Under the pieces are notes generated by a model that searched no databases, was not told the origin of the DNA, and worked only from the letters and a program-made list of their open reading frames with translations. Both the position numbers and the translations under genes were made by a program. A DNA stretch of 64,000 bases from Patescibacteria group bacterium (GTDB taxonomy: Bacteria; Patescibacteriota; Minisyncoccia; Minisyncoccales; UBA5738), in NCBI GenBank assembly GCA_022710775.1, contig JAKLGH010000001.1, positions 134,522 to 198,521 on the forward strand, read 5' to 3'. Shown here in pieces: positions 1 through 54,532 of the stretch; position 1 is the first letter of the stretch, and each line of letters begins with the position of its first letter.

Positions 1-1966
1 TTGTTTTGTTCAAAAACACTCGTTTCTTCATATTTCATTATCGCAAGATATTGTTTTCCATGTTCATTTTGCAATATTACGCAAGAATTGTCTTTTTCTT
101 TATTTATATCCCAGCCAGCCGCTAGCGATGAATTTTCAAAATTCAATTTTAATTTTCCCAGTTTGTTTTGCGGCTTTTGAGTTAAATAATTTCTAACGAC
201 ATCATAGTCTTTAACGACTTCAAAAACCTTAACTTTATCGAGGATTTCTGTAAAATTTCCATCAATAGAATATTTCGCTTTAACTCTCCAATATTTCAAA
301 ATTTGCCCCGCAAAAAGCGCGTCGTCAAGCCAAGCCTTGATCGCAATCTTGCTTTCGTCTTTTTGATAATCTCCTTTCTCGATTTTTAGAACTTCGTCCG
401 CCCCCTTAATAAATTTTTTAGATAAATCCTCAATGTCATTGCAGATCATTTTCAACAATGCTTCGTGCGGCGTCTGGGCGTTCTTAATAATGTCTTGCTT
501 TGCCTTGTTATTATCCTTAAAATTTTCACGAAATAAAACGCCTTCTTTGTCCCAATCATCTTGCCCGTCCAAAACTTCAAACAAATCAGAAAGCTGGACT
601 GCCCGCGGAACTTTTGCTTCACCGCTGTTTTTATCTTCATTGAAAATTTTTGCTTTTATCAATTTTTCTTTTAAATTGCCGAAATTACCAAAATATTTTC
701 CGGAGATTGTGTTAATTGCCTTGTCCGACCAATAGATATTTTCAAAATTATCCAAATTCAAAAGATAATCTGTAAAGGCTTTGACGGTTTCTTTATCTTT
801 TCCACCCGTAAAATATTTGTCGCCAAGATTTTTTGCTTTTGTTAAAACATCATTAAGTTCATCGTTATCTTTTATGGTTTTTAAAAAATCTTTTTTTTCT
901 CCGCAACCAATTTGCTTGAATAAGCTTTTAAATTTGGGAAGGTTATTTTTGGTTTGCTGATAATACAGATTAACCAAATAATTCAGGTTGCCAACTTTTG
1001 AATTGTAGGAATCAATCTCTGATTGAGACAAACAATTTACAAAATTTGCTAAGGCAAAGCTAGCTTTATCATTCTTAATATCATAAGCCGAAATAAATTC
1101 GGTTTTTTTATCCGTTCCATCCCATTTTGGATTTCTTAATCTTAATTCTTTGCCGGCATTTTGAAGTTCTGTAAAAACTTTATCATATTCATCTTTATTT
1201 TTTTATAAGATAATAGATTGTCAACAAATTTAGGCAAATTTTCATCCACAATACGGCTCGCCACCGCAGTCGCTTTTTCTTCGGTAGAATAGTAGTTCTC
1301 TCTATTTTTATTAAATCCGCCAAAATAGGTAAAAAAGCTCCTCATTTTTTCCAGTGCCTTTTCTATTTTTTCCTTATTGGCTTCATTATTTTTCACCAAA
1401 ACCTTTACTTCCGGAATTTTTAAATTATCAAAATAAGCCGGATCAACCGATAATTTATTTTTTACATAAGCTAAAATACCCGCTTCTGTTAAAACTTTAT
1501 AACCGTTTTCTTTCAAGAAATCATTGTTTTTATCGTTTTTTCCTGCGACACTTTTAAACTTTTTTCCTGCGACTATATAAAGTTTATCGAATTCTTTTCG
1601 CAGTTTCTTTTCTTCATCTTGGAGCGGTTTATCTATTTTTTTTCGTATTTCTTTGTCCTGTTCGGCTTTTTGTTTTTCGTATAACTTAAAATATTCAGAA
1701 AAATCAATTTCTTTTGCCTTATCACTTTCAAGAGCTTCGGTAATAAATTCCCCGTGTATTTTATCAAAAACCGGCTTTAAAATCTGGTAAGCATCCTCTA
1801 TTTCCTGGTCTGCAAAAAAAGTGCGTAAATTTTCATCATATCTTAAATTAGCAGCCATATTTTCCCTTGTTTTTCCAATCGGCTTGAGCTCGAACCTCAA
1901 AGTTTTTGCCAGCGAATATTGATGCGTAAAATTATCATAAATTGTTTTTGTTTTTTTGTTTTCCAT
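1..1966 (-). CDS. cas12a: Cas12a (Cpf1) type V-A CRISPR effector, N-terminal ~655 codons; the gene continues past the window start; apparent 1-bp deletion frameshift in an A-run (coding strand) near 1197-1204
   Basis: ORF 1142..1966 starts MENKKTKTIYDNFTHQYSLAKTLRFELKPIGKT.. and contains ..RIVDENLPKF.., matching the conserved Cas12a N-terminus (FnCas12a ..KYSLSKTLRFELIPQGKT.., RIVDDNLPKF). After a frame change in the A7 tract the minus strand stays open to position 1 and encodes ..RNYLTQKPQNKLGKLKLNFENSSLAAGWDINKEKDNSCVILQNEHGKQYLAIMKYEE.. (cf. Fn ..[56 protein letters not shown]..). Confidence 0.85.
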
Positions 1967-2499: not shown

Positions 2500-3681
2500 C
2501 TATAGGTCGTCGAGACATTCATTATATTCGCGAACCTGGGCGTTGTATTCGTCCGCGCTTTCGCGGTATCGGGCGTAGATATTTTTTTGATCCGCCACTT
2601 TTTGGTTGTAATTCTTCACTTCTTCGTTTATTTGGTCGATCAAAATGTTCAGAGCCTCATTTACCTCCGCGGCTTCGCTGTACCGTCCGTAACCCTGAAG
2701 CTCTTCGATCCGGACCTTTAATTCTCCGGCCTCTTGTTTCATCGAGTCGATCGCCTGCGACATCAGCGCCAGACCAGCCTCTATGTCCTCCAGCTCGGCT
2801 TTCAGGCTATCGACCCTGTTGGCAAGATCCTCGTTTGGAGCAAAGCACGCCGATGAAGGCGTGCCGAAAAATTGAACCGCCAGCCAGGTATTATGGCCCT
2901 CAAACATCCCGTAGCCGACAGCCGCGCCGATCTCCTGAAAATTATCGCTCAAAATATTGTTGCGGTGACCCGGACTTTTCATCCAGCCGGAAACCAGATC
3001 GGCATCGCCGATAAAATTTCCTTGGGCGAGATTTTCCCCGGAAACCAGGCTGTCATAACCGGCTTCGTCCAAAAAGTGGTTCATCTTCAACCCTTCCGGT
3101 GATTCGTGGGCGAAATACTGCTTTGAGAACATATCCCGCACGCGGTATTCCGCCGCACGATCCAGCTTGGCGCTTTCTTTAAGCTCGCTGCCGGCGCCCA
3201 GAAACGAGATCCGCTCACGGTTGGTAAGCTCGATAACGCCAGCCGAACTAAGTCCGGCGCCTTCTTCTGTTTCCTGGTTTCCGCCGTCTGTCTGTTTAAA
3301 ACCGCCATCGCCGGTTTTTACCGGTGAACCTTCCGTTATAATTTCTGGCTTTAATGCTGTTTCCGGATTTTTCCTTTCGGTTTCCGGCTCCGCTTTTATC
3401 GCGCCTCGCTGGGCATCCGCGATCTTTTTTTCGACCTCAATTTTGAGCGCGGGAACCGCTTCGTCCAGATTAAGATCAATGGGGTTAAGTTCTTTGAACT
3501 TTTCAACGGAATGTTTGGTTTCAGCAATTTTCCTTTCAAGCGCGTCTTTCTTTTTTTCAAAAAACCCCGCGATAAGACCCGGGTCGGTTATGCCGGAAAA
3601 ATGGCCGCGTTCCAAATAGATCCCGCAAACCAAAATCGCGATCGCGGAATAAAATAAAAAGATTTTTCGATACGATAACAT
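2500..3681 (-). CDS. secreted/membrane-anchored CAP (SCP/PR1, YkwD-like) domain protein with C-terminal coiled coil; start chosen at internal Met (MLSYRKIFLF.. signal anchor), ORF track extends to 3846
   Basis: CAP-domain motifs ..GHRNNILSDNFQEIGAAVGYG.. and ..GYDSLVSGENLAQGNF..; N-terminal hydrophobic segment; C-terminal heptad-like ELKVRIEELQ region. Confidence 0.75.
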   Translation of the reverse strand: MLSYRKIFLFYSAIAILVCGIYLERGHFSGITDPGLIAGFFEKKKDALERKIAETKHSVEKFKELNPIDLNLDEAVPALKIEVEKKIADAQRGAIKAEPETERKNPETALKPEIITEGSPVKTGDGGFKQTDGGNQETEEGAGLSSAGVIELTNRERISFLGAGSELKESAKLDRAAEYRVRDMFSKQYFAHESPEGLKMNHFLDEAGYDSLVSGENLAQGNFIGDADLVSGWMKSPGHRNNILSDNFQEIGAAVGYGMFEGHNTWLAVQFFGTPSSACFAPNEDLANRVDSLKAELEDIEAGLALMSQAIDSMKQEAGELKVRIEELQGYGRYSEAAEVNEALNILIDQINEEVKNYNQKVADQKNIYARYRESADEYNAQVREYNECLDDL

Positions 3682-3888
3682 GCGATGCGAACAGCTTATT
3701 TTTATTAATCTGGAAGAATACCCCGCTGGCTTTGCCGCGCAGGATGAATGCCAGCCCGGAGCGGTTTGCCTGGGTCCCGCAAAATGCGGGAATAGCGGGG
3801 GATTAACAAAATACTTCGGGGCTCTGCCCCGAAGCAGTTTATTCAAAAAAGAAAATCATTTTTGGCCAAAAAATATTCCGGCCGGCAA

Positions 3889-4650
3889 TCAGCGGATCTG
3901 GCGGCAATTGTTTTCGCATGAGAACATTTTTTCGCTTTCTTGGGCAAAATCGTTTTCGCATTTTTCAACGCAGGCTTTGCATTCATCGAACAGCTTCGAC
4001 TGCTCCGGCTGGCATTTACCGTCGACAACGGCGCATTTAGCAAATTGGCGGCAGTAATCGCCAAGCTCGTAAATCTCGGTGCAGGCATCAGGCTTTTTTG
4101 GTCCGCAAACAATATCCAGTCCGTGGCAGTCTTCGATAACGCACAATCCAGGTTCGTCAGGTTCCTCGGTGCCGGCTTCCTTGATACCCGGCCTGTCTCT
4201 AACGATATAAACCACCTTCATTTGGTCGATAAACGCCGGCATCTTGCTTTTCAAATCGGGTGAATTCTCTTTTAGATAGATCTGCACGCACATCGTATTC
4301 TCGCATTCGCCGATAACCATATGGTCATAGGCCGGATATTGCTTTAACGCTGGTTCGTACGCCTCCTTGATTGCCACAATCGGATCCGGCAGCGGCTGGT
4401 GCGTCCTGATCTGTTCGAATTTCTCATCGTAAAATCCGCTGTCTTTGCAATCCTGTATGGGCCGGCAAGCCAGCTTGCAATTTCGGCAGGATTGGCAAAT
4501 AGCGCACCGGGCCGGGCAATCGTTGATTGAATGAGAACCGCAATCGACAGGCTTCAAATAATTTTCGTAATAAAATCCGTAAATTAACACGCTTATCAAA
4601 ACCACGGTCAAAAAAATAACCGAATATAAGCCTTTAGGCAATTTTTTCAT
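3889..4650 (-). CDS. cysteine-rich secreted/membrane-anchored hypothetical protein
   Basis: 253-aa ORF with N-terminal TM (LYSVIFLTVVLISVLIYGF) and >25 Cys in CxxC/CxxxC spacings. Confidence 0.6.
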   Translation of the reverse strand: MKKLPKGLYSVIFLTVVLISVLIYGFYYENYLKPVDCGSHSINDCPARCAICQSCRNCKLACRPIQDCKDSGFYDEKFEQIRTHQPLPDPIVAIKEAYEPALKQYPAYDHMVIGECENTMCVQIYLKENSPDLKSKMPAFIDQMKVVYIVRDRPGIKEAGTEEPDEPGLCVIEDCHGLDIVCGPKKPDACTEIYELGDYCRQFAKCAVVDGKCQPEQSKLFDECKACVEKCENDFAQESEKMFSCENNCRQIR

Positions 4651-4810: not shown

Positions 4811-5062
4811 TTATAGGCCGCGAAATCTGCAGGCAAACTCAATGCCTTCGATCTGCTTCAAAAAGAACTGCGAATCTTTGACCAATGTTACAATCAAGCA
4901 TTTTCTGGCAGACAAGCTTGATTTAAGAGCTCTATCCAATTCTTTTCCGGAACCATTAGGCGGTTTGCCCAACAGGCTGTCGATCTCATCGATCATCCGG
5001 GAAAGATCATCGATCTGGCGCATAACCATCGTCCTCTCTTCGTCCAGTGTTATCATAATCAC
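4811..5062 (-). CDS. hypothetical small protein
   Basis: 83-aa ORF only; no recognisable motif. Confidence 0.3.
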   Translation of the reverse strand: MIMITLDEERTMVMRQIDDLSRMIDEIDSLLGKPPNGSGKELDRALKSSLSARKCLIVTLVKDSQFFLKQIEGIEFACRFRGL

Positions 5063-5570: not shown

Positions 5571-6467
5571 CTATCTTAATTCGCCGTAAAACTTCATCTT
5601 AACCATCGCGTCTCCCCGGATATCGATAATGCGGTTCGAAAAATAATCGATTCCCCAAGGACCAAAACGGAAATACAAAAGCAATATACCCGCTATCAAG
5701 GGAAAAATACCGATCTCAGCCAACCGCAGTCTGGTGGCTATGGTCAGAACCAGGCCCATGGCAGTGAGAAGAACTCCCAGGACCGAAAATACGTCTTCGG
5801 CATGGGGTATCTTGATCCCTTTTCGAACCTCTATGATGGAATTTTCCATTCCGTCGGCGTATGCGGAGAACCGGTTTGCCGAGATGATCATTTTCTTTTC
5901 GGTCCGCCCGTCCGTAATGGCTACGCCGCCGTCGCTCGAAAATTCAAAGCTCGCTTCTTGAGCTTCGACTATAAAGGGAAACTGGATCGACCGCAATGGT
6001 TCGCCGCTCGTATGCAGGCCGTCTTCCACGAACTCTCCGACCAGTCTGATCGGATCAAGACCTTGCAAAACCACCGCGGCATTCTCTTTAACGGACCGGA
6101 TGACAATATGCGCCCGTTTCAGATCGGTTTCCATTTCATCGGTCTTAAACCTTGACAGCGCGGCCAGCGGCGCGGAATCACCTTTATCTATCACTTCCAG
6201 CGCTATGCTGGCAAAATTATTGTTGCCCGAGTTATAGCGCTGCTGCAAAGTTTTGATCAGCTGCGGCACTGTCAGAAGGTAGACTTTCCCGATCACAGAA
6301 ATGGTTTTCCTTTCGGTATAGAAAGCCGGGTCGACAAGCTCGATAACTTCCGACAGAACATCCCTGCCTGCCGCTTCCGGAACGTGAGGAGAGGTTCTTT
6401 TCGGGTCGTCCATAACCCGTTTTATCTCCTCCTCCAGTCCGGACCGGATATCCGCGAATTCTTTCAT
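5571..6467 (-). CDS. hypothetical protein with two C-terminal TM helices
   Basis: 298-aa ORF; C-terminal hydrophobic helices VFSVLGVLLTAMGLVLTIA / IGIFPLIAGILLLYF; abuts the upstream 6481..6951 ORF (operon-like). Confidence 0.5.
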   Translation of the reverse strand: MKEFADIRSGLEEEIKRVMDDPKRTSPHVPEAAGRDVLSEVIELVDPAFYTERKTISVIGKVYLLTVPQLIKTLQQRYNSGNNNFASIALEVIDKGDSAPLAALSRFKTDEMETDLKRAHIVIRSVKENAAVVLQGLDPIRLVGEFVEDGLHTSGEPLRSIQFPFIVEAQEASFEFSSDGGVAITDGRTEKKMIISANRFSAYADGMENSIIEVRKGIKIPHAEDVFSVLGVLLTAMGLVLTIATRLRLAEIGIFPLIAGILLLYFRFGPWGIDYFSNRIIDIRGDAMVKMKFYGELR

Positions 6468-6480
6468 GCTGCCCCCGTCT

Positions 6481-6942
6481 TTACAGGAGGCGGATAAAAG
6501 CGCCGCTGGATACCGTTATTGTGAGGGTCGGCGTCTGTTTGAAGACCTGGCCGTCAATTGTAACCTTGTCCGGATCCTGGACCGGGAGCGGCTTTATCTC
6601 CAGTTCTTTTTTGGATTTAAGCTGCTCTCCCGGAATAAATTTCCTGACTCCGGTTACAGTAACAATTCCCTTGGCCAAATAAAGATCGCCTTCTTTCCCG
6701 GACTTCAACTCTCCGTTCGCGGCTTCGATCTTGATATCCAGAGCGAGGGGATTTTCAATGTTCTCGGCCCTGATCTCGTTGGCGGTCAAAATATCCGGTT
6801 TGCCGACAATTCTTACCTCGGCGGTCTCGGGAGCCACGATCTCAATGCACCGGGCGGAAAATATCCGATCCCTGATAGCTATGTACTCTTCGGGCGTTAC
6901 GATCGTTCTCTGTTCCTGAATTAATTTCTGTTCCTGTTTCAT
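6481..6942 (-). CDS. hypothetical protein (probable first gene of a two-gene operon with 5571..6467)
   Basis: 153-aa ORF (MKQEQKLIQEQ..), no recognisable motif. Confidence 0.45.
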   Translation of the reverse strand: MKQEQKLIQEQRTIVTPEEYIAIRDRIFSARCIEIVAPETAEVRIVGKPDILTANEIRAENIENPLALDIKIEAANGELKSGKEGDLYLAKGIVTVTGVRKFIPGEQLKSKKELEIKPLPVQDPDKVTIDGQVFKQTPTLTITVSSGAFIRLL

Positions 6943-7030
6943 ACAATGCACCCCTTTTTAAGGTTCTGATATAGTTTTTAATATTATTTAATTAATTTGT
7001 CAACTAGCTTACCGTTTTAAACCAAAGAAA

Positions 7031-7053
7031 AAAGGGATGCTGTTCATCCCTTT
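7031..7053. terminator. rho-independent terminator (aaagggatg-ctgtt-catcccttt)
   Basis: hairpin plus T-run on the minus strand directly after the out-of-frame PGF-CTERM stop at 7052-7054. Confidence 0.6.
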
Positions 7054-7224
7054 ATTGCCGGCGGCGAAACGCGATTAGCGCAACCGCCAAAAGTCCCGAA
7101 ATTGCGAAGACGGCTTCAAATCCCGGCTCCGATGGCACATCTTCCTCGCCTGCCTTATTAGCAGCAGGCGCGGCCGCCGGGGCAGAATGCTCTTGGGCAG
7201 TCTGCGCTGGAGCGGCTCCGCTTA
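7052..7224 (-). other. out-of-frame C-terminal extension encoding a linker plus PGF-CTERM-like sorting signal (..PSEPGFEAVFAISGLLAVALIAFRRRQ*); joins the SPFH gene if one A is added to the A6 run (T-run 7229-7234 on the plus strand)
   Basis: Minus-strand frame with codons at 7052..7222 is open. It reads ..KKRVSGAAPAQTAQEHSAPAAAPAANKAGEEDVPSEPGFEAVFAISGLLAVALIAFRRRQ and ends in a PGF motif + hydrophobic helix + RRR, the archaeosortase-type PGF-CTERM architecture. Inserting one A gives ..AAELLKKRVSGAAP.. continuous with the SPFH ORF. Confidence 0.55.
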
Positions 7225-8037
7225 CCCGTTTTTTAGGAGCTCTGCCGCATTCAGCATCATCCCGTTGCCGCCGCCGCCAATGATCACGGTGTTCGGATTG
7301 GAAGCAATGGCCTCTACATACTTGTACTGGACCAACGTCGGGGTGATAGAATTGGCAACCATCTGATTAGCCTTTGCCTGAGCCTCGGCAGCGGATAGTA
7401 TCTTCAAATTCTCCTGTTGCTGAACTAGGACAGAGAACTTCATTGTCTCGACTTCCTGGCCTCTCTTAATCTTGGCCTCAATAGCCTTAACAACTTCATC
7501 CGGCAAGACAACTCCGCGGATCAAGACCTGGTCAAGTATAATACCTTCTTTGACCAAAGTTGGATACTCCTGCAGCCGCTTCTGCACATCGGCTTGGATT
7601 TCGGAAGCCTTTCCGGTATAGATATCTTCCGCCGTCCAACGCTTGATCTCGTCGCGCAACACATACATGAAGATCGGCGTGATCAATGTGTCAAAGTAGC
7701 TACCCGACACATTCTTGTATATCCCAACCGAAGACCCAGGTTTGATCCGATATATAATGGATACATCAGGCGTGACCGAAAGCCCTTCCTTGGTCAGGGT
7801 ACCTTCAATCTTTGTATATTCATGCGAAAGCTGTTTTAGCTCGAACGGTATCACATGACCCCAGGGTGCAATGTAATTCCAGCCTGACGGTAAAGGCTTG
7901 TCTTCCACCGTTCCCAGTTTGTAATATACACCCTCGTAACCGGGTTCGATGATCTCGACCGTCGCCATCACCACAAAAGCACCCAGTATTACTAGTATAC
8001 CTAGCAAACTGGCTGTTCCTCTTCCTCCAAGTGACAT
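7222..8037 (-). CDS. SPFH/band-7 (prohibitin/HflC-like) family protein; annotated stop probably caused by a homopolymer indel
   Basis: N-terminal TM (LLGILVILGAFVVMA) followed by an SPFH domain (..VSIIYRIKPGS.., ..AEAQAKANQMVA.., coiled region). Confidence 0.85.
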   Translation of the reverse strand: MSLGGRGTASLLGILVILGAFVVMATVEIIEPGYEGVYYKLGTVEDKPLPSGWNYIAPWGHVIPFELKQLSHEYTKIEGTLTKEGLSVTPDVSIIYRIKPGSSVGIYKNVSGSYFDTLITPIFMYVLRDEIKRWTAEDIYTGKASEIQADVQKRLQEYPTLVKEGIILDQVLIRGVVLPDEVVKAIEAKIKRGQEVETMKFSVLVQQQENLKILSAAEAQAKANQMVANSITPTLVQYKYVEAIASNPNTVIIGGGGNGMMLNAAELLKNG

Positions 8038-42439: not shown

Positions 42440-45400
42440 CTATTGTTCTTCCCAATCCGGAATGGACTTTTTTACCATTATGTTTTTCTCCAGCGAACAG
42501 GTATAGCCGCTGGAATCCGTAACCGTGAGCTTGGTCGTATAGTTGCCCTTGACCGGGTAAACAACCGTAAAAGTCTCAGCCACGGAAGTGTTTGGTACCG
42601 CGCCCTGGATAACCCAGGACCGGGAAGCGAACGTTGCTCCGCCGAAAACTTGCGTGTCATCGGTGTATGTCACTATATCATCCACTTTTGGATCGGCAGG
42701 GCTTAAACTGAAATCAACCGACGGATATCCGTGGAGCGGGGTCGTAAAGCCCGTTCCGGTGATCCAGCCGGATTCTTGGCCTTGGCTATCCCAAACCTTA
42801 AGGCGCCAGTAATATGCGGTATCATATTGAAGTTTTGAAGCCAGTGTTGCGTAGCTATTAGATGACGAAATTATTTTTCCCGAATCGTCGGCCGGCGATG
42901 AAAAATCGGGATCGTCGTCAACTTGCACCTGGCAGTGAGCCTGGGGATTGTTTTCAGGATCGGAGTAATTCCAGGAAAAAATAGTAGCCAAGCCGCTGGC
43001 GCAAAAATCGTTTTGAAAAACCAAAGTATCGGCGGCTGGCGGATCATTGCTCACGCTAACAGTAACCGTAGCGCTTTCGCTGGCTGCCAGGCTTTCCCGC
43101 TCAACGATCATTTTCGGAACGTAAAGGCCAGCCGCGGCGTAGGTATGATTAAGCGTTTTTACGGCGGCGCTGGAGCCGTCCTCTTTGTCGTCCCAAGCCC
43201 CGCAGGCAATAAGGCAGCCTGCTACGGTCGAACAGCTGTCGTTGCAATCGAACCAAACGGTGTAATTAATGGTACCGGCGGCAGTGCCGGATACCGTACC
43301 CGTTAAAACTACATTTAACGGAGCTGACCCAGAATCAGGAGCGGCAACAACATCAACCGATAACGTTGCCGGGCCGCCGCCGGAAACAACAGTTACAGTA
43401 TCGGTGTCGGAAGCGGTCAGGCTCGCCCGCTCCACAACGATCTTGGGAGTATAAACTCCGATGGCGGCGTAGGTATGATTAAGCGTTTTTACGGCGGCGC
43501 TGGAGCCGTCCTCTTTGTCGTCCCAAGCTCCGCAGGCAATAAGGCAGTCGGCTACGGTCGAACAGCTGTCGTTGCAATCAAACCAAGCGGTGTAATTAAT
43601 GGTACCGGCGGCAGTGCCGGACACCGTGGCCGCAAGAATAGTGGCAAGCGGAGCGTTGCCGGAAAACGGAGCCGCGGCAATATCAACCAATAACGTTGAA
43701 GCCGGGGAAACGGTAACCGTATCGCTTCCGAAGGCAACCATCGATCCGCGCTCCACGATGATCTTAGGCAGGTAAGTACCGGCGGCTGCGTAAGTATGGA
43801 CATAGCTTTTCACAGTATCGTTGGAACCGTCGTCTTTTGCGTTCCAAACGCCGCAATCAGCCACGCAGCCAACTACCGTCGAACAAGCGCTGTTACAATC
43901 ATACCAGACAGTGTAATTAACGGTTCCCGCGATATTGCCCGAAACCGTAGCGGTAATAGTCGTATCCAATGGCGCATTGCCGTGATCCGGACTAACGGCA
44001 ACCGCCACGTTCAGCGTTTTCGGACAGCTGGAACTCGCTACGCATTGGGATTCCGAAAGGCAGCCGCTGGGAGCGCAAGTCCGGTTTTGGCGCATTTGAT
44101 CCGCGGCGCAACTGCCCAAACCGCAATCGTCGTCGGCCCAAGCGGTGCAAACGCAGCATGTAGGATCGGCTACGCATTGGGTTTCAGCAAGACAAGCGGC
44201 CGGATTGCAAGTCCGGGTCTGCAATTTTTGCAAAAGCGTGCATCCGCCCGTACCGCAAGTTCCGGCGGTGCTCCACGATCCGCAGGAACAGGCAGAAACC
44301 GAAGACCTCGCTTCAGCAGTTAGACCTTCTCGCTCAATGAGGACTTTCGGCGTAGCGCTAGCAGTATATGTCGTCAATATCGAATAAGTCGCCGAAGCGT
44401 TATTGAGCGACTGATGGTCGGGTGCCTGGCAAGCGGCTTGGCAAGCGGATAAAGTGGAACAGGTATCGTTGCAATTCCACCAAAAATAGTAATTCAAAGT
44501 TCCTTGAGCGTTGCCCGAAGCTGTCGCGGTCAGCATGCTGGACAAAGGCGAGTTGCCCGATGAAGGACTAACGCTCAAGGACGCCGATAAATTTATACAG
44601 GAATTATCGGCAACGCATTGGCTCGCCGATTGGCAGCCGGCCGGATTACAAACCCGGGTCTGATTGCGCTGGCGCAAACTGCAAGTTCCTCCGCCGCAAG
44701 CTCCATTGGTCCACGAACCGCAGGAACAGCAGGTAGCGTCATTTACGCACTGGCCTTCGCTTTTACAGCCGGCCGGAGTGCAAGTCCTCGTTTGGTATCT
44801 TTTAGTATCTTGGCACGAACCTCCTCCGCATGCCTGGTTCGTCCAGGCGCCGCAAGTACAGGGTATATAGGATACTGTCGAATAAGCCGCTTGCCACGTA
44901 TAAGCCGATGTGGACGAATTCGGACCGCCGGCAATAATAAGCTTGCCGAAAGGATCCCAGCGCTGCATAATCCCGCGATAATAAACAACGAATCGGGCAT
45001 TCCCGGAAAATGACGCCGTCGGAAGCACAAAAGTCTTGTTATATGAAAATGAATTCACTTTGGAAACGCTTGAAGGACTGTAGGATCCCAGTTTGATTAT
45101 TTTAGTCGCGCCGCCGGTATTCACCGTATCGACTTCGTCGCAATAAGGAATTTTTGAACTGCCGCACCAGTCCTGGATCTTGCCGCAACAGGAAGAACAC
45201 GGGCTCCATTTACAACCTGGCCATTTTAAAGGACAAGGCACGGACGGAGAAAGTGTCGGACAGGATCCGGCCGTCGAGCAGCTGTACATCAAACAGCTTT
45301 CCTGATCGTAATATTCATCGTTGCAAGCATCGATCAAAGGCACTTTGGCGTCTTCCATCATATAAAATTCCATTATACCGCCGCTCCAGCCCGCCGTGTA

Positions 45401-45613
45401 TCCTGAAGCCGCAACGTTTGACTTTACCGTCCCCGAAAAGGTTACTGTCTGTCCGTCGGTATAGGATCCGCTGACCGGACTTGTCGGCACTATCGTAGAA
45501 CCCCAATTACCGCAGCTCATCACGTTTGTCACCGCCGCGAATGACAGATCGGGAGCGACCCAAAAAATAGCAACGAATGCCAAAAATGCGGCAGATATGT
45601 TTTTTTTGGTCAT
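42440..45613 (-). CDS. giant secreted surface-protein paralog P1 (1057 aa): signal peptide, four Cys-rich TSP1-like repeats, three tandem PKD-like modules, FN3-like domain, C-terminal PKD domain ending ..SIPDWEEQ
   Basis: signal peptide MTKKNISAAFLAFVAIFWVAPDLSFA; repeats CxCxxWxxxxCGxGxCxxxQxxQTRxCxPxxCxxxxQCVxDxxC; C-terminal ~95 aa shared with P2-P5. Confidence 0.8.
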   Translation of the reverse strand: MTKKNISAAFLAFVAIFWVAPDLSFAAVTNVMSCGNWGSTIVPTSPVSGSYTDGQTVTFSGTVKSNVAASGYTAGWSGGIMEFYMMEDAKVPLIDACNDEYYDQESCLMYSCSTAGSCPTLSPSVPCPLKWPGCKWSPCSSCCGKIQDWCGSSKIPYCDEVDTVNTGGATKIIKLGSYSPSSVSKVNSFSYNKTFVLPTASFSGNARFVVYYRGIMQRWDPFGKLIIAGGPNSSTSAYTWQAAYSTVSYIPCTCGAWTNQACGGGSCQDTKRYQTRTCTPAGCKSEGQCVNDATCCSCGSWTNGACGGGTCSLRQRNQTRVCNPAGCQSASQCVADNSCINLSASLSVSPSSGNSPLSSMLTATASGNAQGTLNYYFWWNCNDTCSTLSACQAACQAPDHQSLNNASATYSILTTYTASATPKVLIEREGLTAEARSSVSACSCGSWSTAGTCGTGGCTLLQKLQTRTCNPAACLAETQCVADPTCCVCTAWADDDCGLGSCAADQMRQNRTCAPSGCLSESQCVASSSCPKTLNVAVAVSPDHGNAPLDTTITATVSGNIAGTVNYTVWYDCNSACSTVVGCVADCGVWNAKDDGSNDTVKSYVHTYAAAGTYLPKIIVERGSMVAFGSDTVTVSPASTLLVDIAAAPFSGNAPLATILAATVSGTAAGTINYTAWFDCNDSCSTVADCLIACGAWDDKEDGSSAAVKTLNHTYAAIGVYTPKIVVERASLTASDTDTVTVVSGGGPATLSVDVVAAPDSGSAPLNVVLTGTVSGTAAGTINYTVWFDCNDSCSTVAGCLIACGAWDDKEDGSSAAVKTLNHTYAAAGLYVPKMIVERESLAASESATVTVSVSNDPPAADTLVFQNDFCASGLATIFSWNYSDPENNPQAHCQVQVDDDPDFSSPADDSGKIISSSNSYATLASKLQYDTAYYWRLKVWDSQGQESGWITGTGFTTPLHGYPSVDFSLSPADPKVDDIVTYTDDTQVFGGATFASRSWVIQGAVPNTSVAETFTVVYPVKGNYTTKLTVTDSSGYTCSLEKNIMVKKSIPDWEEQ
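43070..44010 (-). repeat. intragenic tandem repeat in P1, period ~330 bp, three PKD-like modules (two copies share an identical ~100-bp core at 43141 and 43471)
   Basis: aggtatgattaagcgtttttacggcggcgctggagccgtcctctttgtcgtcccaagc occurs twice. Confidence 0.7.
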
Positions 45614-45649
45614 AAAAACCTTTCTTTTTCAGCCTCGATTATAGGCATA

Positions 45650-48600
45650 CTACAATTCCTCCCAATCCGGCAGGCTGCTGTTCACGGTAATATCCTTTTG
45701 AAGCGAACAGGTATAGCCGTTGGAATCGGTAACCGTAAGCTTGGTAACGTAATCTCCTTTAACGGCGTAGGTAACGGCCGGAGATTCCGCAACGGAGGTG
45801 TTCGGATTAGCGCCATCGATCTCCCAGGAGCGCGAAACGATCGTTGCCCCGCCGAATACTTGGGTTAGATCGGTATAGGTAATTAGTTCAGTTGCCTTGG
45901 GCGGAGCCGGAGTAGAACTGAAATCAATCGCCGGATAAGCGTGGAGCGGCGTTGAAAAATCAGGACCGTTAACCCAGCCGGAATCATTACCCCAGCTATC
46001 CCAAACTTTAACGCGCCAGTGGTAAACAATATCGTAACCAAGTTTTGAAGCCAAAGTTACGTAGCTCGTAGATGAAGCCGCCGCTTTGCCCGTGTCGTCG
46101 GCCGGAGAGGAAAAATCCGCATTATTATCAACCTGAACTTGGCGGAAAACCTGGGGGTCGTTTTCGGGATCCGAATAGGTCCAGGAAAACATGGTGGAAA
46201 GGCCGCTGCCGCAATAATCGGCCTGCTTCAACAAGGCAGTCGCCGACGGCGGACCGTTAATGGCAGTAACCGCCACTGTGCCGGCGGCGGCAAGGTTATG
46301 GCGCTCCACGATCATTTTGGGATGGAATGTTCCCGCGGCCGCGTAGGTATGGTTAATGGTACGGGTTACGGCGGCCTGGCCGTCGGCCTTGTCATCCCAG
46401 GCTCCGCAGGAGGCCTGGCAGGCGCTAACCGTGGCGCAGGGATCATCGCAATCCCACCAGGTAGTGTAATTGATGGTGCCGACCGCCGTGCCTCCCACCG
46501 TGCCGGTAATGGCTGTGGTTAACGGCGCTTGGGCGGAAACCGGACTGGCGGCCACGGAAACCGTAAGGGTCCGGGGACAAACCGCGCTGGCAACGCATTG
46601 TGATTCAATATTGCATCCGGATACGTTGCAGGTGCGGACCTGGCGCATCTGGTTAGCCGGACAGCCGCCCAATTCGCAATCATCATCGCTCCAAGCTCCG
46701 CAGACGCAACAAGCGATATCATTAACGCATTGGGTTTGGGCAAGGCAGTTGAGCGGGTTGCAAATTCTTGTTTGTTCCCGCTGCAGCGGGCCGCAGCTTC
46801 CCGCCCCGCAGGCCGCATTAGACCAGGCGCCGCAATCGCAATAGTTCACCAAAAAATCGAGGGCGCTATCGCCCGCCAGATCCCATGAGCGCTGGTCGGA
46901 ATACGAACATTTAACGAATTTGTTCTGGCCCGCAACCTGATATTCGTAAGTGGCCGCGTTAGTATGGCAAGTATTGTTTGAAACACCGTGGATGAAATTA
47001 TATCCGGCCGGCAATCCCGAAGATATCCGGACGCAGTAGCTGTCGCCCAAGAAAATCGATTTTGCCCAATTGCCGGATGAATCCGTAGTCGCGGTTCCCG
47101 CGCCGCACAGATCAAGCACGGCATTCGGTATGCCGTTCCCTTTTTCGTCCTTGACGCTGCCGCCGATCGTTACCGGCTGCTTAACCGCAACCAGCACGTT
47201 GGGCGTGTAATCGCCAAACCATTCTTTTCCTTCCTGAATCATGCGCCATCGGAAATTATAATTTCCGGGAGTTACGGGAGCCGTAACATTAAATGAAAAT
47301 GTTTTGGAACTATTGGTCGAGACATCGCTTCCTACGCTTACCCGCGATAGACCCCAAGTGGTATTATCCTGCGGGTTCTGGGATCCTAAATTGTAATTTT
47401 TTGCCGTAGTCCAAGTGGTGTATCCGTTATTCTTCATCGTAATGGATATAGGATAGGTTTGCCCAACCGTCATAGTAGCCGGAACTGTCTGGCTGATATA
47501 TTGAGCATTGTTTCCCAACCGCTGGTAAGCAATAACCCAGCACCGCGAATTTTCCATGTAACTTGCGTCCATTGCGTCTGGATGCCACCTTTTGTATGTT
47601 CCTAGAAGCTCGATCCAAAAACGAACTCCATTGGATGTATCGAATCCGGTCGGTATGTCAAAAGTTTTATTCCATTGCGGGCTGCCTTGCAAACCATAAG
47701 GACCAACTGAGCCTAAAAGCGTAATCGGCTGACTAGCGGTGTTTAAACATCTTCGGCCGCCGCAATTATAAGTTGGAATATCCACATCCGAAGAAATGAA
47801 AAATTTAATGCTGGATATCAAATATCCTCCGCCATAAGGAGTATAGTTATGCCACAATCCTCCTCTAAAATTAACTGTTGGAGCGGATGGGCCAAGCGGA
47901 CTAGACCAAGACATCGAATCAATTGAGTATTCCGTAACGATGGTATAAGCGCTGGCTGATTGAGCGAAAAAAATCCCCGAGAGCGTAAAAAAGATTGGAA
48001 AAAATATCCAAACCATATTCCTGGAACGGTACTTCCAAACCAGAAACAAAATAAGGATAATTGCGATAAATATCGTTATCCATAAAAATACGGATTCATC
48101 CTTTTTTTCCTCAACCTCCTCGAACGCAATCGGATCCGTTTTAACATCTGCCGCTATCTCTGCCGGTTTTCCCGCTTCGTACTCGGAAAGCGTAACTCCG
48201 CCTTTGGCAATTTTAACTGAGACCAGCGGCGATGCAAAGTCTTTGTTTACGGATATGCTCCGTTCAAAAACATCGTCCTCCAGCGAACCCGAACCGTTTT
48301 CCGTTGCTATAATTTCTCCATCATCGATTATCTTGGCAGATATATCGATATCGATACCGTCTTGCACATATGTTTTCGAACCCTCCAAAGCAACCCGCAA
48401 AATAGCTGTTTCTCCGGCTAAATAGCTGGATTTATCAAGGCTTACGTCAAGAATATCCATAAAAGACGCCCCAATTTTTTCTTTGGCGATATAGCGGCCG
48501 GTTATAATATTTGACGCCGGACTTAAAGTCTTCGAATCAAAGAGCTGAATTGTGGCATTGTATATTCCCGGTTCTTTGATTTCTGGAAGTAGCAGTTCCA

Positions 48601-49294
48601 GATCCTTGCTCTCGCCCTTGATAAGCGAAATCGCGCTTCCGTCGACAGACTCATCCGCGCCGCCGCCGATAAGTTTTGTTTTTACCTTGAAGAATACATC
48701 CCTGTTCAAAACCGCAGTGTTGCCAACTTTCACCGATACCCGAGGCTGTTTTCCGACATAATGGTTTAAAAGCATCTCGATTAAAGCATCTTTTGGGTTT
48801 GGCGGATTCCAGCTTTCCAGCAACCATTTCGCTTCAGACAGCACTACTGGCGAACCGGCTCCTTTAACGGATACGGGAAATTCCCTGTAATCGAATTGAT
48901 AACCCTTTTCATTAGCCAGTATTAACTTCAATGTGGCGTTAGCTTCGGGAAGCGTATCAGGCAGAAAACACTCCGCTTCTTGGCTGATCGATCCTTCTGC
49001 CGGAAGGGTGAAAATTCCGCTAATGTCGCGCATCCACAGTTGTTTCGTTCCACTCTTATCCACGACCCACAGTTCGCAGGAAAGTGAGGTAAGCTTGTCG
49101 ATTGTTCCTCCCGAGACCGAAGCCTTAACTACTGCCCGTTCTCCGGCCTCCAACTCGCTTTCGTCAAAATAGGCTTCAAATATGCGGGGCTGGTTTTCCG
49201 AAGCCCATTCTTCAGCGTATGCCGGATAGATGGCCGCCATGCAAAATCCCATTAAAGAAAACGCGTAGATTGATATAAGTGATTTTTTTTTCAT
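45650..49294 (-). CDS. paralog P2 (1214 aa), apparently an in-frame fusion: an upstream ~425-aa secreted protein ending in a TM anchor + KYRSRN, directly followed by a new signal peptide (MVWIFFPIFFTLSGIFFAQSASA) and a ~790-aa P-type module ending ..SLPDWEEL
   Basis: no stop between ..LVWKYRSRN and MVWIFF.. (around 48020); downstream part contains two TSP1-like repeats, PKD, FN3-like and C-terminal PKD domains. Confidence 0.75.
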   Translation of the reverse strand: MKKKSLISIYAFSLMGFCMAAIYPAYAEEWASENQPRIFEAYFDESELEAGERAVVKASVSGGTIDKLTSLSCELWVVDKSGTKQLWMRDISGIFTLPAEGSISQEAECFLPDTLPEANATLKLILANEKGYQFDYREFPVSVKGAGSPVVLSEAKWLLESWNPPNPKDALIEMLLNHYVGKQPRVSVKVGNTAVLNRDVFFKVKTKLIGGGADESVDGSAISLIKGESKDLELLLPEIKEPGIYNATIQLFDSKTLSPASNIITGRYIAKEKIGASFMDILDVSLDKSSYLAGETAILRVALEGSKTYVQDGIDIDISAKIIDDGEIIATENGSGSLEDDVFERSISVNKDFASPLVSVKIAKGGVTLSEYEAGKPAEIAADVKTDPIAFEEVEEKKDESVFLWITIFIAIILILFLVWKYRSRNMVWIFFPIFFTLSGIFFAQSASAYTIVTEYSIDSMSWSSPLGPSAPTVNFRGGLWHNYTPYGGGYLISSIKFFISSDVDIPTYNCGGRRCLNTASQPITLLGSVGPYGLQGSPQWNKTFDIPTGFDTSNGVRFWIELLGTYKRWHPDAMDASYMENSRCWVIAYQRLGNNAQYISQTVPATMTVGQTYPISITMKNNGYTTWTTAKNYNLGSQNPQDNTTWGLSRVSVGSDVSTNSSKTFSFNVTAPVTPGNYNFRWRMIQEGKEWFGDYTPNVLVAVKQPVTIGGSVKDEKGNGIPNAVLDLCGAGTATTDSSGNWAKSIFLGDSYCVRISSGLPAGYNFIHGVSNNTCHTNAATYEYQVAGQNKFVKCSYSDQRSWDLAGDSALDFLVNYCDCGAWSNAACGAGSCGPLQREQTRICNPLNCLAQTQCVNDIACCVCGAWSDDDCELGGCPANQMRQVRTCNVSGCNIESQCVASAVCPRTLTVSVAASPVSAQAPLTTAITGTVGGTAVGTINYTTWWDCDDPCATVSACQASCGAWDDKADGQAAVTRTINHTYAAAGTFHPKMIVERHNLAAAGTVAVTAINGPPSATALLKQADYCGSGLSTMFSWTYSDPENDPQVFRQVQVDNNADFSSPADDTGKAAASSTSYVTLASKLGYDIVYHWRVKVWDSWGNDSGWVNGPDFSTPLHAYPAIDFSSTPAPPKATELITYTDLTQVFGGATIVSRSWEIDGANPNTSVAESPAVTYAVKGDYVTKLTVTDSNGYTCSLQKDITVNSSLPDWEEL

Positions 49295-51720: not shown

Positions 51721-51774
51721 GTTAAAGCCTATTAGCGTATTAACTTTTTTATCTGTAAAAAAATCCGGCTTAGG

Positions 51775-52242
51775 TTAATCTTTATTTGCTCCCAATACAA
51801 TGCCAAAATCCGTATCTTTTGACAAATAGACCGTATCGGCGATAAATTCCGGGGTACCGACATTTCCGCCTCTTCCAATTACGCTGATAATATCTCCCGG
51901 AATGATGTCGCTTCGCTCAACCCTTGTTCCGTCCCTAAAAATTTCCGTCGATTCCCCAATCGAAAAAGTTATCGATTCCCCGTCCTGTTCAAAAGTAAGG
52001 GCAGATGAAACCGGATCAAAAGATCCGATTTTTCCCGTCGCGCCGCTTTCGGTCTGAGACAACAAAACATTATCCGGTTTGGCGGCAGCCTCTTTCGCCT
52101 CGGAATCCTCCGGGATGATTGGCGCGATTTCGGCAGCTTCTTTCTTTTGAATTTGACGAACCGAAAAATAAACAAATATAAAGATCGTAAGAATAAATAA
52201 AAAAAGAGCAAAAATTATTATGGCGGTTTTGGCTTTATTCAT
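51775..52242 (-). CDS. small single-TM protein S1 (155 aa), partner family of the P paralogs
   Basis: N-terminal TM; C-terminal ..GDIISVIGRGGNVGTPEFIADTVYLSKD.. shared with S2 and S3. Confidence 0.6.
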   Translation of the reverse strand: MNKAKTAIIIFALFLFILTIFIFVYFSVRQIQKKEAAEIAPIIPEDSEAKEAAAKPDNVLLSQTESGATGKIGSFDPVSSALTFEQDGESITFSIGESTEIFRDGTRVERSDIIPGDIISVIGRGGNVGTPEFIADTVYLSKDTDFGIVLGANKD

Positions 52243-52278
52243 TTTAATATTGATGCTTGGATTTATAAGATATCCATC

Positions 52279-54531: not shown

Positions 54532-54532
54532 G

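Follow-up and report, generated by a model that had tools for sequence, protein, structure and literature searches.

Where does the SPFH gene on the minus strand of this DNA end? Its zero frame closes at a TAA codon, and an overlapping frame that stays open past this stop encodes a PGF motif, a hydrophobic helix and an arginine cluster, as the original prediction had noticed; coordinates, translation and model scores all agree with that description. We analysed the whole 64-kb stretch (the window, below) together with related loci, and conclude that programmed -1 ribosomal frameshifting near the stop codon quite probably lets this gene make two proteins.

The gene, its N-terminal anchor and its two neighbors lie as follows.

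7222 to 8037, minus strand: SPFH/Band-7 (prohibitin-type) gene, assigned by PF01145, an AlphaFold model and structural matches.
7948 to 8025, minus strand: TM helix at the N-terminus (about residues 5-30), a signal anchor with a predicted N-in/C-out orientation, based on hydropathy, flanking charges and the modelled helix at 5-26.
6951 to 6481, minus strand: companion gene 1 (156 aa), conserved next to the SPFH gene.
6467 to 5571, minus strand: companion gene 2 (298 aa, two C-terminal TM helices), conserved next to the SPFH gene.

In the list of open reading frames the SPFH gene runs from 8037 to 7222 on the minus strand, with a zero-frame product of 271 aa, and its 3' end on that strand reads ...GAG CTC CTA AAA AAC GGG TAA. 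The domain model PF01145 matches this product with 83.4 bits, against a cut-off of 23.6. The AlphaFold2 model of the 271-aa protein (mean pLDDT 79.6) has a TM helix at residues 5-26, the SPFH domain at 27-177 and a long helix at 180-230; its best structural matches in Foldseek were human prohibitin (8rrh, E 3.6e-16), stomatin, HflK/C and erlin, and its sequence matches in the PDB were prohibitin-1/2 and erlin-1/2. The N-terminal helix is flanked by net positive charge on its N side and net negative charge on its C side in most orthologs, and such an N-in/C-out signal anchor is predicted to hold the SPFH domain outside the cytoplasm. By homology to the solved cages, the protein may assemble into a membrane-bound multimer shaped as a ring or cage. 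One or both companion genes were found by local tblastn in most SPFH loci with enough flanking sequence; Pfam and NCBIfam scans of the two gave no match, and Rfam and tRNA scans of the 64-kb window gave no matches.

Past the zero-frame stop, the overlapping frame and its 3' flank contain six features.

7055 to 7234, minus strand: -1-frame extension of 58 added residues, by translation; the open frame is kept in all lineages.
7127 to 7228, minus strand: low-complexity linker rich in Ala, Pro and Glu.
7118 to 7126, minus strand: PGF signature motif, matched by PGF-CTERM models and abutting the hydrophobic helix.
7067 to 7117, minus strand: C-terminal hydrophobic TM helix, EAVFAISGLLAVALIAF.
7052 to 7066, minus strand: basic cluster RRRQ (7066 to 7055) and the -1-frame stop TAA (7054 to 7052).
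7021 to 7053, minus strand: intrinsic terminator-like hairpin AAAGGGATG-aacag-CATCCCTTT with a T-run, directly after the tail stop.

The -1 frame is open from an A6 run (7234 to 7229 on the minus strand, hence T6 at 7229-7234 on the plus strand) to the stop at 7054-7052 and encodes KKRVSGAAPAQTAQEHSAPAAAPAANKAGEEDVPSEPGFEAVFAISGLLAVALIAFRRRQ; down to position 7052 it thus supplies a linker and PGFEAVFAISGLLAVALIAFRRRQ. One extra A in the A6 run was said to make the tail continuous with the SPFH frame, and translation confirms this, giving a protein of 328 aa. With tandem slippage the predicted trans-frame product would read ...ELLKN-RVSGAAP...RRRQ; its tail-specific tryptic peptide is VSGAAPAQTAQEHSAPAAAPAANK, and another tail-related stretch is AGEEDVPSEPGF....

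The view of this tail as a tripartite sorting signal of the PGF-CTERM type, attached to the SPFH protein, is likewise borne out. Pfam PF18204 (PGF-CTERM; cut-off 18.8) gives the fused protein 31.8 bits and the tail alone 36.2 bits, and TIGR04126 (cut-off 24.5) scores 26.5 bits on the tail alone and 21.4 bits in the whole fused protein. The helix is very near the methanogen/ANME flavor of PGF-CTERM, PGFEAVFAIAGLLAVAYLVLRRR. Ortholog tails reach 33.4 (L001), 26.6 (L023) and 19.4 bits (L002) against the PGF-CTERM model, while those of more distant orthologs score 12-16 bits or find no match, that is, they fall under its cut-off. The layout is nevertheless common to 15 lineages, in which PGF, helix, basic cluster and stop follow one another at the extreme C-terminus.

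The transcription unit of the gene takes in the tail as well. No minus-strand terminator separates the SPFH stop from the tail's own stop, and most CPR orthologs likewise have a hairpin with a T-run 3' of the latter. As a separate matter, several CPR orthologs have a TTGACA-like hexamer 3' of the tail terminator.

At the junction of the two frames there is a recoding architecture with three elements.

7228 to 7234, minus strand: slippery heptamer A_AAA_AAC, which the SPFH frame reads in register as cuA AAA AAC; proposed as the site of the -1 shift.
7222 to 7224, minus strand: zero-frame stop TAA, one codon 3' of the heptamer.
7215 to 7223, minus strand: conserved purine-rich block tAAGCGGAG (consensus tAAGCGaAG), at +5 to +13 after the heptamer.

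This architecture is deeply conserved. Among 16 distinct orthologous lineages with DNA, spanning 36-100% protein identity, the slippery site, the stop and the open -1 frame are present in every one, and the zero-frame stop (TAA, TAG or TGA) always falls 0-1 codons past the heptamer. The site is A_AAA_AAC, in register, in 13 of the 16, C_CCA_AAC in one (L023) and A_AAA_AGC in two (L002 and L029); the A-run measures A6 in the window, A7 in L026, A5 in L002 and L029, and only A3 in the CCCAAAC of L023. Eight contigs assembled independently of one another (samples from ENA, JGI, NCBI and Logan) share the identical A6 followed by TAA. Because K-N near the C-terminus is an ancestral motif of the SPFH protein, amino-acid conservation alone is no evidence here and only the codon-level signal counts. 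That signal is strong: only 22% of the Lys codons in the window's SPFH gene are AAA and only 22% of its Asn codons are AAC, and under per-gene codon usage the joint chance of the synonymous heptamer positions over nine deep lineages is P ~1.5e-12, an approximate value as the lineages are not fully independent. In most of the SPFH genes, moreover, the heptamer is the sole in-register X_XXY_YYZ site.

Purifying selection acts on the tail, and only in the -1 frame: pN/pS is 0.40 there, while the two remaining frames give 0.91 and 2.79. The tails of L028 and L001 differ at 14 synonymous and 5 nonsynonymous sites. The search of orthologous SPFH genes for the tail, which had been proposed as a check, found linker, [P/S]GF, TM helix and basic cluster in the -1 frame of 15 of the 16 lineages. 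Across the 15 aligned tails the G and F of the motif are invariant and the P nearly so, and an R/K cluster stands 5' of the -1-frame stop in all 15. The linker keeps its length (~25-37 residues) and its composition but not its sequence; in other lineages it is rich in Pro and Thr, and some linkers carry N-x-S/T sequons. The L029-31 tail is short and degenerate. By our own arithmetic, (61/64)^55, an open frame of 55-60 codons after a stop has a probability of ~0.07 in random sequence; given its recurrence in all 16 lineages, the arrangement is far above chance.

Two distant relatives, P0060 and P0126, carry linker, PGF, TM helix and basic tail in frame, which indicates that the tail belongs to the SPFH protein; P0126 lies in the same three-gene module, and the Pfam scan did not report a PGF-CTERM tail in either. 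In a protein database of 5.8 billion clusters, no in-frame (fused) version of the ortholog group itself was found. A further 27 family proteins, for which we had no DNA, have C-termini such as KN, KNQ and KNG, and 0 of the 27 are fused. One 322-aa protein, P0189, was considered as a fused product and rejected, its extra length being an N-terminal over-call.

The purine-rich block occurs in 16 of 16 lineages, with high information at +7, +9, +11 and +12 in an ungapped heptamer-anchored alignment; it is a candidate 3' stimulator of the shift, although its conservation may instead follow from the S/R-E/G-G/E residues that the -1 frame keeps there. For six close relatives RNAalifold gave no conserved 3' RNA structure (covariation term unfavorable, +1.59); single-sequence folds 3' of the heptamer are no more than modestly stable in the close clade, with z between -2 and -3.6, and unremarkable in distant lineages. 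By eye, the heptamer-anchored alignment contains no conserved upstream SD-like element. A_AAA_AAC is not known as one of the most efficient heptamers in E. coli. The A_AAA_AGC of L002 and L029-31 is unfit for tandem slippage and would need slippage in the P site only.

We infer that the slippage is ribosomal, and build on this the following model of its efficiency, the topology, the processing of the tail and the function of a mixed cage. Most ribosomes would read cuA AAA AAC GGG and stop at TAA, making the 271-aa prohibitin-like protein; this short isoform would have its N-terminal helix in the membrane and its SPFH domain outside the cytoplasm. A fraction would slip back one base with tRNA-Lys and tRNA-Asn on A_AAA_AAC, read AAA AAA CGG GTA... 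and add 58 residues: the flexible Ala/Pro-rich linker, PGF, the TM helix and RRRQ. Because the SPFH domain would already be extracytoplasmic, the tail would insert from out to in, leaving its Arg cluster in the cytoplasm; the predicted N-in/C-out anchor and the modelled prohibitin-type fold are consistent with a tail of this kind. The long isoform would then have a membrane anchor at either end; alternatively, given a PGF-specific sortase, it would be cleaved and lipid-anchored. Since SPFH cages of this type are often built from two paralogues (PHB1/2, HflK/C, erlin1/2), frameshifting could fix the ratio of plain to tail-bearing subunits within one assembly.

Slippage of RNA polymerase could in principle produce the same two proteins, if the enzyme added an A at A6 so that some mRNAs carried the tail in frame. 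The shift site is indeed an A-run in 15 of 16 lineages, and cas12a, broken at an A7 run in three assemblies, hints that slippage of some kind on A-runs may be tolerated in this organism. Appreciable slippage by bacterial polymerases, however, typically takes runs of ~7-9 nt or more, and the A5-A6 found here is shorter than such a long homopolymer. The exact register is conserved together with the 3' C of A_AAA_AAC, a trait of codon-anticodon re-pairing. L023, which is nested inside the A_AAA_AAC clade, is particularly informative: with only A3 in its CCCAAAC it keeps an intact and conserved tail, and its C_CCA_AAC is a canonical X_XXY_YYZ site without a homopolymer, as expected of tandem tRNA slippage rather than of polymerase stuttering or a base-calling error. 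We therefore regard transcriptional slippage as unlikely.

The tail might instead be a relic: an ancestral in-frame SPFH-PGF-CTERM gene would have lost one base, leaving a tail that is untranslated and yet undecayed. The in-frame relatives P0060 and P0126 and the shortened, degenerate tails of L029-31 lend this some color, but the latter clade equally displays what real decay looks like. Elsewhere the tail ORF is intact across lineages whose synonymous sites are saturated, low pN/pS is confined to the tail frame, the PGF, helix and basic cluster are kept in 15 lineages, the heptamer and adjacent stop are conserved at the codon level, and the terminator is located 3' of the tail. Such a relic is very improbable.

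The tail could also be a small gene of its own, with ribosomes starting inside it or resuming past the SPFH stop to make a tail-anchored peptide, but this is harder still to reconcile with the data. Gene callers do annotate stand-alone "PGF-CTERM sorting domain-containing" ORFs of 25-79 aa; our profile search with the tail in the 5.8-billion-cluster database matched only ORFs of this size, among them some from ANME and Methanothrix and two, P0228 (Pacebacteria) and P0253 (Patescibacteria), that come from other CPR MAGs and bear a PGF-CTERM label at NCBI. They are a mix of genuine small secreted proteins and probable fragments, and we did not count them as recoded genes. In the window a GTG lies four codons 5' of PGF, preceded by GAGGAAGAT, and the purine-rich block resembles a Shine-Dalgarno sequence. 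No start codon is conserved in the tails, however, and L021, L028 and L024 are without any between the opening of the -1 ORF and PGF; a peptide lacking a signal sequence could not put its N-terminal linker outside the cell; and the in-register heptamer and the conservation of the adjoining linker (KK[RPL]V/L...) would be left unexplained. The odds of such a gene are very slim.

Finally, a sequencing or assembly artefact masking a true A7 and a plain in-frame gene has next to no chance of being right: one added A does restore the frame, as it does for cas12a in the same window, but the identical A6+TAA in eight independent assemblies from different samples and pipelines, the same frame break in sixteen lineages down to 36-38% identity, one of them with the non-homopolymer site C_CCA_AAC, and the failure to find an in-frame clade member among 5.8 billion clusters overturn the original prediction's suggestion of homopolymer undercalling. 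Its companion observation on cas12a holds in that this gene is split at an A7 run and needs one extra A, but not as undercalling, since the break is identical in three independent assemblies.

Programmed -1 ribosomal frameshifting, the reading we prefer, has a close precedent in E. coli dnaX, whose tau and gamma products arise by -1 frameshifting at A_AAA_AAG (Tsuchihashi and Kornberg, 1990, as cited in PMC8915115). Both are cellular, non-mobile genes with an in-register, A-rich X_XXY_YYZ heptamer, and in both one mRNA would give two isoforms with different C-termini; the dnaX isoforms join one complex at a set ratio. The dnaX shift truncates the protein, whereas the SPFH shift would extend it by 58 residues. 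The dnaX site has an upstream SD-like element and a downstream stem-loop, neither of which was found at the SPFH site; its heptamer ends in G, the SPFH heptamer ends in C, and the SPFH zero-frame stop follows 0-1 codons past the site.

Alpha-carboxysome CsoS2A/CsoS2B and E. coli copA, which yields CopA(Z), are further bacterial cases of -1 frameshifting. There, as proposed for SPFH, the frameshift governs whether a C-terminal region is present (in CsoS2 the shell-anchoring end), and the copA heptamer C_CCA_AAG is nearly that of L023, C_CCA_AAC. In those genes, however, frameshifting removes the C-terminal part, whereas here it would add an anchor, and gene family, organisms and type of anchor differ. 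Phages also use frameshifts near the 3' end, as in the tail chaperone G/GT and in Listeria phage capsid and tail proteins, to extend some of the subunits that build a multimer; those are genes of mobile elements with soluble-domain extensions, whereas the SPFH tail is a membrane-sorting signal. The archaeal gene fucA1 of Saccharolobus solfataricus shifts by -1 at A_AAA_AAT (Cobucci-Ponzano, 2006, as cited in PMC8915115). It shares with the SPFH gene an A_AAA_AAY heptamer, a cellular prokaryotic setting and a downstream frame that is a genuine part of the protein; the fucA1 shift is needed for its sole functional, full-length enzyme, whereas both SPFH products are plausibly functional and the site lies at the extreme 3' end.

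The two-paralogue SPFH cages PHB1/PHB2 (8rrh), HflK/HflC (7vhq, 7wi3) and erlin1/2 (9o9u) share the fold, the order of domains and the N-terminal anchor of the protein studied here. In them the SPFH domain is extracytoplasmic or in the intermembrane space and two related types of subunit are combined, from two paralogues; here the two types would come from one gene by recoding. None of these solved relatives has a C-terminal TM helix or sorting signal. Our literature search found no earlier description of an SPFH frameshift tail; one apparent "prohibitin" match in a review of programmed frameshifting was rejected, as the word was "prohibiting".

The tail resembles the signal of the archaeosortase A system, in which PGF-CTERM substrates (TIGR04126, PF18204) include the S-layer glycoprotein of Haloferax volcanii (bioRxiv 10.1101/2023.06.07.544157). 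The two share PGF abutting a TM helix, a basic cluster, and a preceding low-complexity linker that is possibly glycosylated. The known system belongs to halophiles and methanogens and pairs many substrates with one sortase; the SPFH tail is one signal in 64 kb, has a CPR bacterial host and is reached only by a change of frame. That the carrier is, as first proposed, a bacterium and not an archaeon is evident from the window, which encodes LexA, DinB, an ECF sigma-70 factor, a YkuD L,D-transpeptidase and FtsX/MacB, and from the NCBI source label of the SPFH protein, Candidatus Paceibacterota; an archaeal-type signal is unusual here for that reason. No exosortase or archaeosortase match appeared in Pfam/NCBIfam scans of ~45 window ORFs or in the Pfam tables of the fetched loci, and a six-frame regex scan of the 64-kb window and all loci found no PGF-type C-termini besides the SPFH tails. 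Two related loci are labelled as Methanotrichaceae MAGs, which may reflect mis-binning of an attached episymbiont; the GC content of L002 is 41%, and the genes flanking L002 and L029 point clearly to neither Archaea nor CPR.

Bacteria of this CPR class are found in physical attachment to Methanothrix and Methanospirillum (PMC9600506, PMC9763046, PMC10936435). A far-reaching reading, which we consider a long shot, is that a CPR bacterium of methanogenic reactors puts its frameshift-dosed, methanogen-flavored tail to cross-domain use: the archaeosortase or membrane of the host archaeon, or an archaeosortase acquired from the host, would recognize it, so that a subset of cage subunits is tethered or lipid-anchored at the symbiont-host interface. 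The closeness of the tail to the Methanosarcinales/ANME/Methanothrix consensus, the Methanotrichaceae-labelled MAGs and the lack of a sortase in the examined bacterial DNA are all compatible with it.

To our knowledge, the cellular, non-mobile genes of prokaryotes with a conserved programmed frameshift form a short list, roughly dnaX, prfB, copA, csoS2, cdd, fucA1 and a handful more. The SPFH genes would add a whole family, with at least 16 DNA-backed lineages and ~27 more inferred from their C-termini, and a new logic, in which it depends on recoding whether the product carries a membrane anchor or sorting signal at its C-terminus. Annotation pipelines cut these genes short, and at times the tail may be called as an orphan "PGF-CTERM sorting domain-containing protein" mini-gene. 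The finding suggests that one gene may suffice for two-subunit SPFH cages, which are elsewhere made from pairs of paralogues. It also places an archaeal-type PGF-CTERM signal in CPR bacteria, and so raises the question of whether these episymbionts with reduced genomes own an archaeosortase, borrow that of their host, or use the tail as a second TM anchor.

The 3′ end of the window's SPFH/Band-7 ORF reads ...GAG CTC CTA AAA AAC GGG TAA, and the -1 frame (one base 5′) contains no stop from the A-run to 7054..7052 (minus strand), encoding KKRVSGAAPAQTAQEHSAPAAAPAANKAGEEDVPSEPGFEAVFAISGLLAVALIAFRRRQ*. The elements concerned are:

8037 to 7222, minus strand: SPFH/Band-7 ORF, 271 aa (ORF list)
7234..7229, minus strand: A6 run (sequence)
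7053..7031 and following, minus strand: terminator-like hairpin and T-run, directly 3′ of the tail stop (folding)

The tail scores 31.8 bits against Pfam PF18204 (PGF-CTERM; curated cut-off 18.8 bits), and against TIGR04126 (cut-off 24.5 bits) 26.5 bits alone and 21.4 bits within the whole fused protein. The original prediction, an overlapping open frame with a PGF-CTERM-type tail after the SPFH stop, was accurate at the sequence level; the signal passes the PF18204 threshold and, as the tail alone, that of TIGR04126. By score and layout the tail qualifies for the PGF-CTERM family, but its bacterial host falls outside that family's archaeal range.

An exhaustive profile search of 1.84 billion representative proteins recovered a compact family at 260-448 bits, and then generic SPFH proteins. 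We compared DNA from 16 distinct lineages (36-100% protein identity). In all 16 the zero-frame stop lies 0-1 codons past the slippery site and the -1 frame is open; checking these homologs for the tail, we found it encoded in that frame in 15, including the orthologous locus L004, where it is cut by the contig end. Because the zero-frame stop may be TAA, TAG or TGA, stop-codon reassignment was ruled out. An in-register A_AAA_AAC is present in 13 of the 16 lineages, and A_AAA_AGC in two (loci L002 and L029-31). Locus L023 reads agC CCA AAC TAA, where C_CCA_AAC is another canonical X_XXY_YYZ heptamer and not a homopolymer; its protein is nested within the A_AAA_AAC clade in a neighbour-joining tree. 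Most of the genes contain no in-register X_XXY_YYZ site other than the shift-site heptamer. Another 27 family members, available as protein only, end in KN, KNQ, KNG, KNA, KNS or KS, or in one case EKK. The EKK protein, P0011 (276 aa, on a 944-nt contig), ends ...LPSPEKK rather than ...KN, which would fit gaA AAA AAR (dnaX-type A_AAA_AAG), a possible third canonical variant.

K-N also occurs near the C terminus of SPFH outgroups (...FKNI or ...FKNVGQ) and is an ancestral SPFH motif; we therefore tested only the synonymous positions of the heptamer. In the window gene, 22% of Lys codons are AAA, 22% of Asn codons are AAC, and A is the third base of 19% of all codons. An x-K-N there would be encoded as A_AAA_AAC with a probability of ~0.01; the joint probability across nine deep lineages is ~1.5e-12, an approximate value because the nine were treated as independent.

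The best explanation, and in our judgement a probable one, is programmed -1 ribosomal frameshifting at the end of the SPFH gene. tRNA-Lys and tRNA-Asn would slip in tandem by -1 on A_AAA_AAC; the terminated protein would have 271 aa and the trans-frame protein (...ELLKN-RVSGAAP...RRRQ) 328 aa. It is mainly the C_CCA_AAC substitution and the conserved 3′ C that suggest slippage by the ribosome. Slippage during transcription is improbable: the A-runs are short, and the L023 site is not homopolymeric. No 3′ stimulatory structure had covariation support, and the folds were only modest. A purine-rich block, tAAGCGaAG, stands at +5..+13 in all 16 lineages; this block or the ever-adjacent zero-frame stop could act as stimulator, and the block may equally reflect conserved -1-frame residues. 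The sequence data show the site, its register and conservation, selection on the -1 frame, the lack of separate starts and where the terminator lies; that the ribosome slips, how often it does so and what becomes of the tail are inferences.

The tail itself is conserved. In the 15 lineages it consists of KK[R/P/L]..., a Pro/Thr/Ala/Glu-rich linker of 25-37 residues, [P/S]GF, ~17-20 hydrophobic residues, an R/K cluster and a stop. The PGF+TM segment has a pN/pS of 0.40 when read in the tail frame, versus 0.91 and 2.79 in the other two; between L028 and L001 the tail frame has 14 synonymous differences at 16.2 sites and 5 nonsynonymous at 43.8 sites. Several ortholog tails exceed the Pfam PGF-CTERM threshold (L001, 33.4; L023, 26.6; L002, 19.4), and the most distant score below it, at 12-16 bits, or find no match. 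These selection and conservation data contradict the idea that the tail is a decaying relic, which we consider quite unlikely; real decay is exemplified by L029-31, where the tail is short and degenerate. There the shift-site context cuA AAA AGC TAG and the linker start KKLESEE are retained, and the -1 tail has 27 codons (..AICLNLPLWLVVGFRTSLFAS*) without PGF or a full TM helix; it looks like either a decaying tail or a different short appendage. This sister clade (L029, 9001-9990; L030; L031; cluster P0019/P0172) is abundant, with 203 member sequences.

That the tail is an independent mini-gene is very unlikely, since it has neither a conserved start codon nor an export logic; L021, L028 and L024 contain no start at all before PGF. 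In the window, the minus strand has no terminator from the SPFH stop to the tail end. A hairpin and T-run also follow the tail stop in most CPR orthologs folded, in several of which a TTGACA-like hexamer comes after the terminator, ahead of the next gene. In the more distant relatives P0060 and P0126, the linker, PGF, TM and basic cluster are in frame; these tails are called PGF-CTERM-like by alignment only, because the Pfam model reported no match on either whole protein. The tail belongs to the SPFH protein.

Sequencing or assembly error has virtually no chance of explaining the frame break. Gene calls on 23 contigs give the 271-aa form, ctaaaaaacgggTAA is identical in 8/8 independent assemblies read (ENA, four JGI samples, NCBI, two Logan runs), and no in-frame fused member of the ortholog group was found in a protein database of 5.8 billion clusters. 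The reproducibility and the missing fused form thus contradict the homopolymer undercalling first proposed. The same proposal had included cas12a, which is split:

1142-1966, minus strand: 274-aa REC1 fragment of cas12a
about 1-1196, minus strand: -1-frame remainder, junction near 1195-1212

The cas12a break does fall at a homopolymer, an A7 run (agt tat aaa aaa ata aag), but three independent assemblies (L011, ENA; L012, JGI; L013, NCBI) share exactly the same 200-nt junction, so a mistake in one assembly does not explain it. The pieces are called as 274 and 1004 aa in L011 and L012, with a 986-aa second piece in L013; cas4 and cas1 follow. Possible readings of the split are a pseudogene, phase variation and slippage on the A-run.

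An AlphaFold2 model of the SPFH protein (mean pLDDT 79.6) has a poorly defined C terminus and these segments:

residues 5-26: N-terminal TM helix
residues 27-177: SPFH domain
residues 180-230: 50-residue helix

Structurally it best matches full-length human prohibitin, stomatin and the HflK/C and erlin cages; prohibitin and erlin are also hits at the sequence level. In most orthologs the charges on either side of the N-terminal helix favour an N-in/C-out orientation, which predicts the SPFH domain outside the cytoplasm, as in HflK/C and prohibitin. That side is the one required for the C-terminal helix to enter out-to-in, with the Arg cluster inside the cell. The tail would serve as a second TM anchor, or as a cleaved, lipid-linked C terminus if a PGF-specific sortase is present. 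Neither the window nor any fetched ortholog locus yielded an exosortase or archaeosortase gene. Other PGF-type C termini were likewise sought: a regex scan of window and loci returned only SPFH tails, and a tail-profile search of the 5.8-billion-cluster database returned only mini-ORFs.

The SPFH gene belongs to a module:

6481-6951, minus strand: companion 156-aa soluble protein
5571-6467, minus strand: companion 298-aa protein, two C-terminal TM helices
5181-5462, 4811-5062, 3889-4650 and 2500-3846, minus strand: further module genes of the closer clade (93-aa, 83-aa, Cys-rich 253-aa and CAP-domain proteins)

In CPR loci the two companions, which have no Pfam or NCBIfam match, lie downstream of the SPFH gene, and in L002, L029 and L032 they lie upstream of it; P0126 sits in a three-gene module shared with the recoded genes. 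NfeD partners other SPFH proteins, and the companions may be functional partners of the SPFH cage.

The window is bacterial and resembles a CPR genome, encoding LexA, DinB, an ECF sigma factor, YkuD L,D-transpeptidase, FtsX/MacB, a PilB-type ATPase and large PKD-domain surface proteins; tRNA and Rfam scans of it found none. An identical SPFH protein is labelled 'Candidatus Paceibacterota bacterium' at NCBI, and contig DAOOSL010000001.1 of GCA_035389765.1 matches the window. Its surface-protein genes include:

49471-57957, minus strand: three tandem paralogous PKD/Ig surface proteins (749, 750, 958 aa)
51775-52242, 54533-55018 and 58241-58684, minus strand: small genes of the cassette
42440-49294: two further giant PKD proteins
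63427-63879, minus strand: 150-aa protein with C-terminal anchor-like signal ..LTENYLIFAAAGLGGLLLALAAIGMLRGRGKQ* (regex scan)

After each tandem PKD/Ig protein comes a protein of 147-161 aa, anchored at its N terminus and with a similar C-terminal motif (..ISVIGRG..), forming a repeated two-gene cassette. The 63427-63879 protein ends in a hydrophobic helix and basic cluster without a PGF, PEP or LPXTG motif.

The window tail very closely resembles the methanogen/ANME flavour PGFEAVFAIAGLLAVAYLVLRRR, and two related loci come from MAGs labelled Methanotrichaceae: L002 (tail region L002:3780-3950, 'Methanotrichaceae archaeon' MAG JALHSR010000341.1) and cluster P0018, which contains MDD1742545.1. 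Archaeal-labelled members have a non-canonical site, ccA AAA AGC TAG, and an intact PGF tail (..QPGFEAAFAIISIAIISALVWHRI*). The labels may reflect mis-binning, because L002 has 41% GC and its flanking genes are uninformative on host; either Archaea and CPR both have the family, or CPR episymbiont contigs ended up in the bin of their Methanothrix host. Paceibacteria-class CPR cells attach to Methanothrix and Methanospirillum (PMC9600506, PMC9763046, PMC10936435). Together with the tail's flavour and the labelled loci, this attachment makes an archaeal origin of the tail or of the whole module plausible but unproven.

Public annotation holds many stand-alone 25-79-aa 'PGF-CTERM sorting domain-containing protein' ORFs (P0191-P0261), some from CPR MAGs, such as P0228 (58 aa, 'Candidatus Pacebacteria bacterium', 52.9-kb contig) and P0253 (41 aa, 'Patescibacteria group bacterium', 61.7-kb contig). 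Some have a signal peptide and are real mini-proteins. Others start at or just before PGF and, by analogy with the SPFH tail, may be the out-of-frame tails of genes upstream of them, wrongly called.

As in dnaX, an A-rich heptamer would give two isoforms, and the archaeal fucA1 heptamer is of similar type. In CsoS2A/B a frameshift decides whether the C-terminal anchoring region is present, as we propose here. Full-text searches of the literature gave no account of CPR bacteria with PGF-CTERM or an archaeosortase, of SPFH or prohibitin genes that frameshift, or of any sorting signal added by frameshifting. What we propose is a known mechanism and a known signal, combined anew in a new gene family and host group. 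SPFH cages are often made of two paralogous subunits (PHB1/2, HflK/C, erlin1/2); by this analogy, the frameshift would plausibly let one gene of a reduced genome supply plain and tail-bearing subunits in a fixed ratio.
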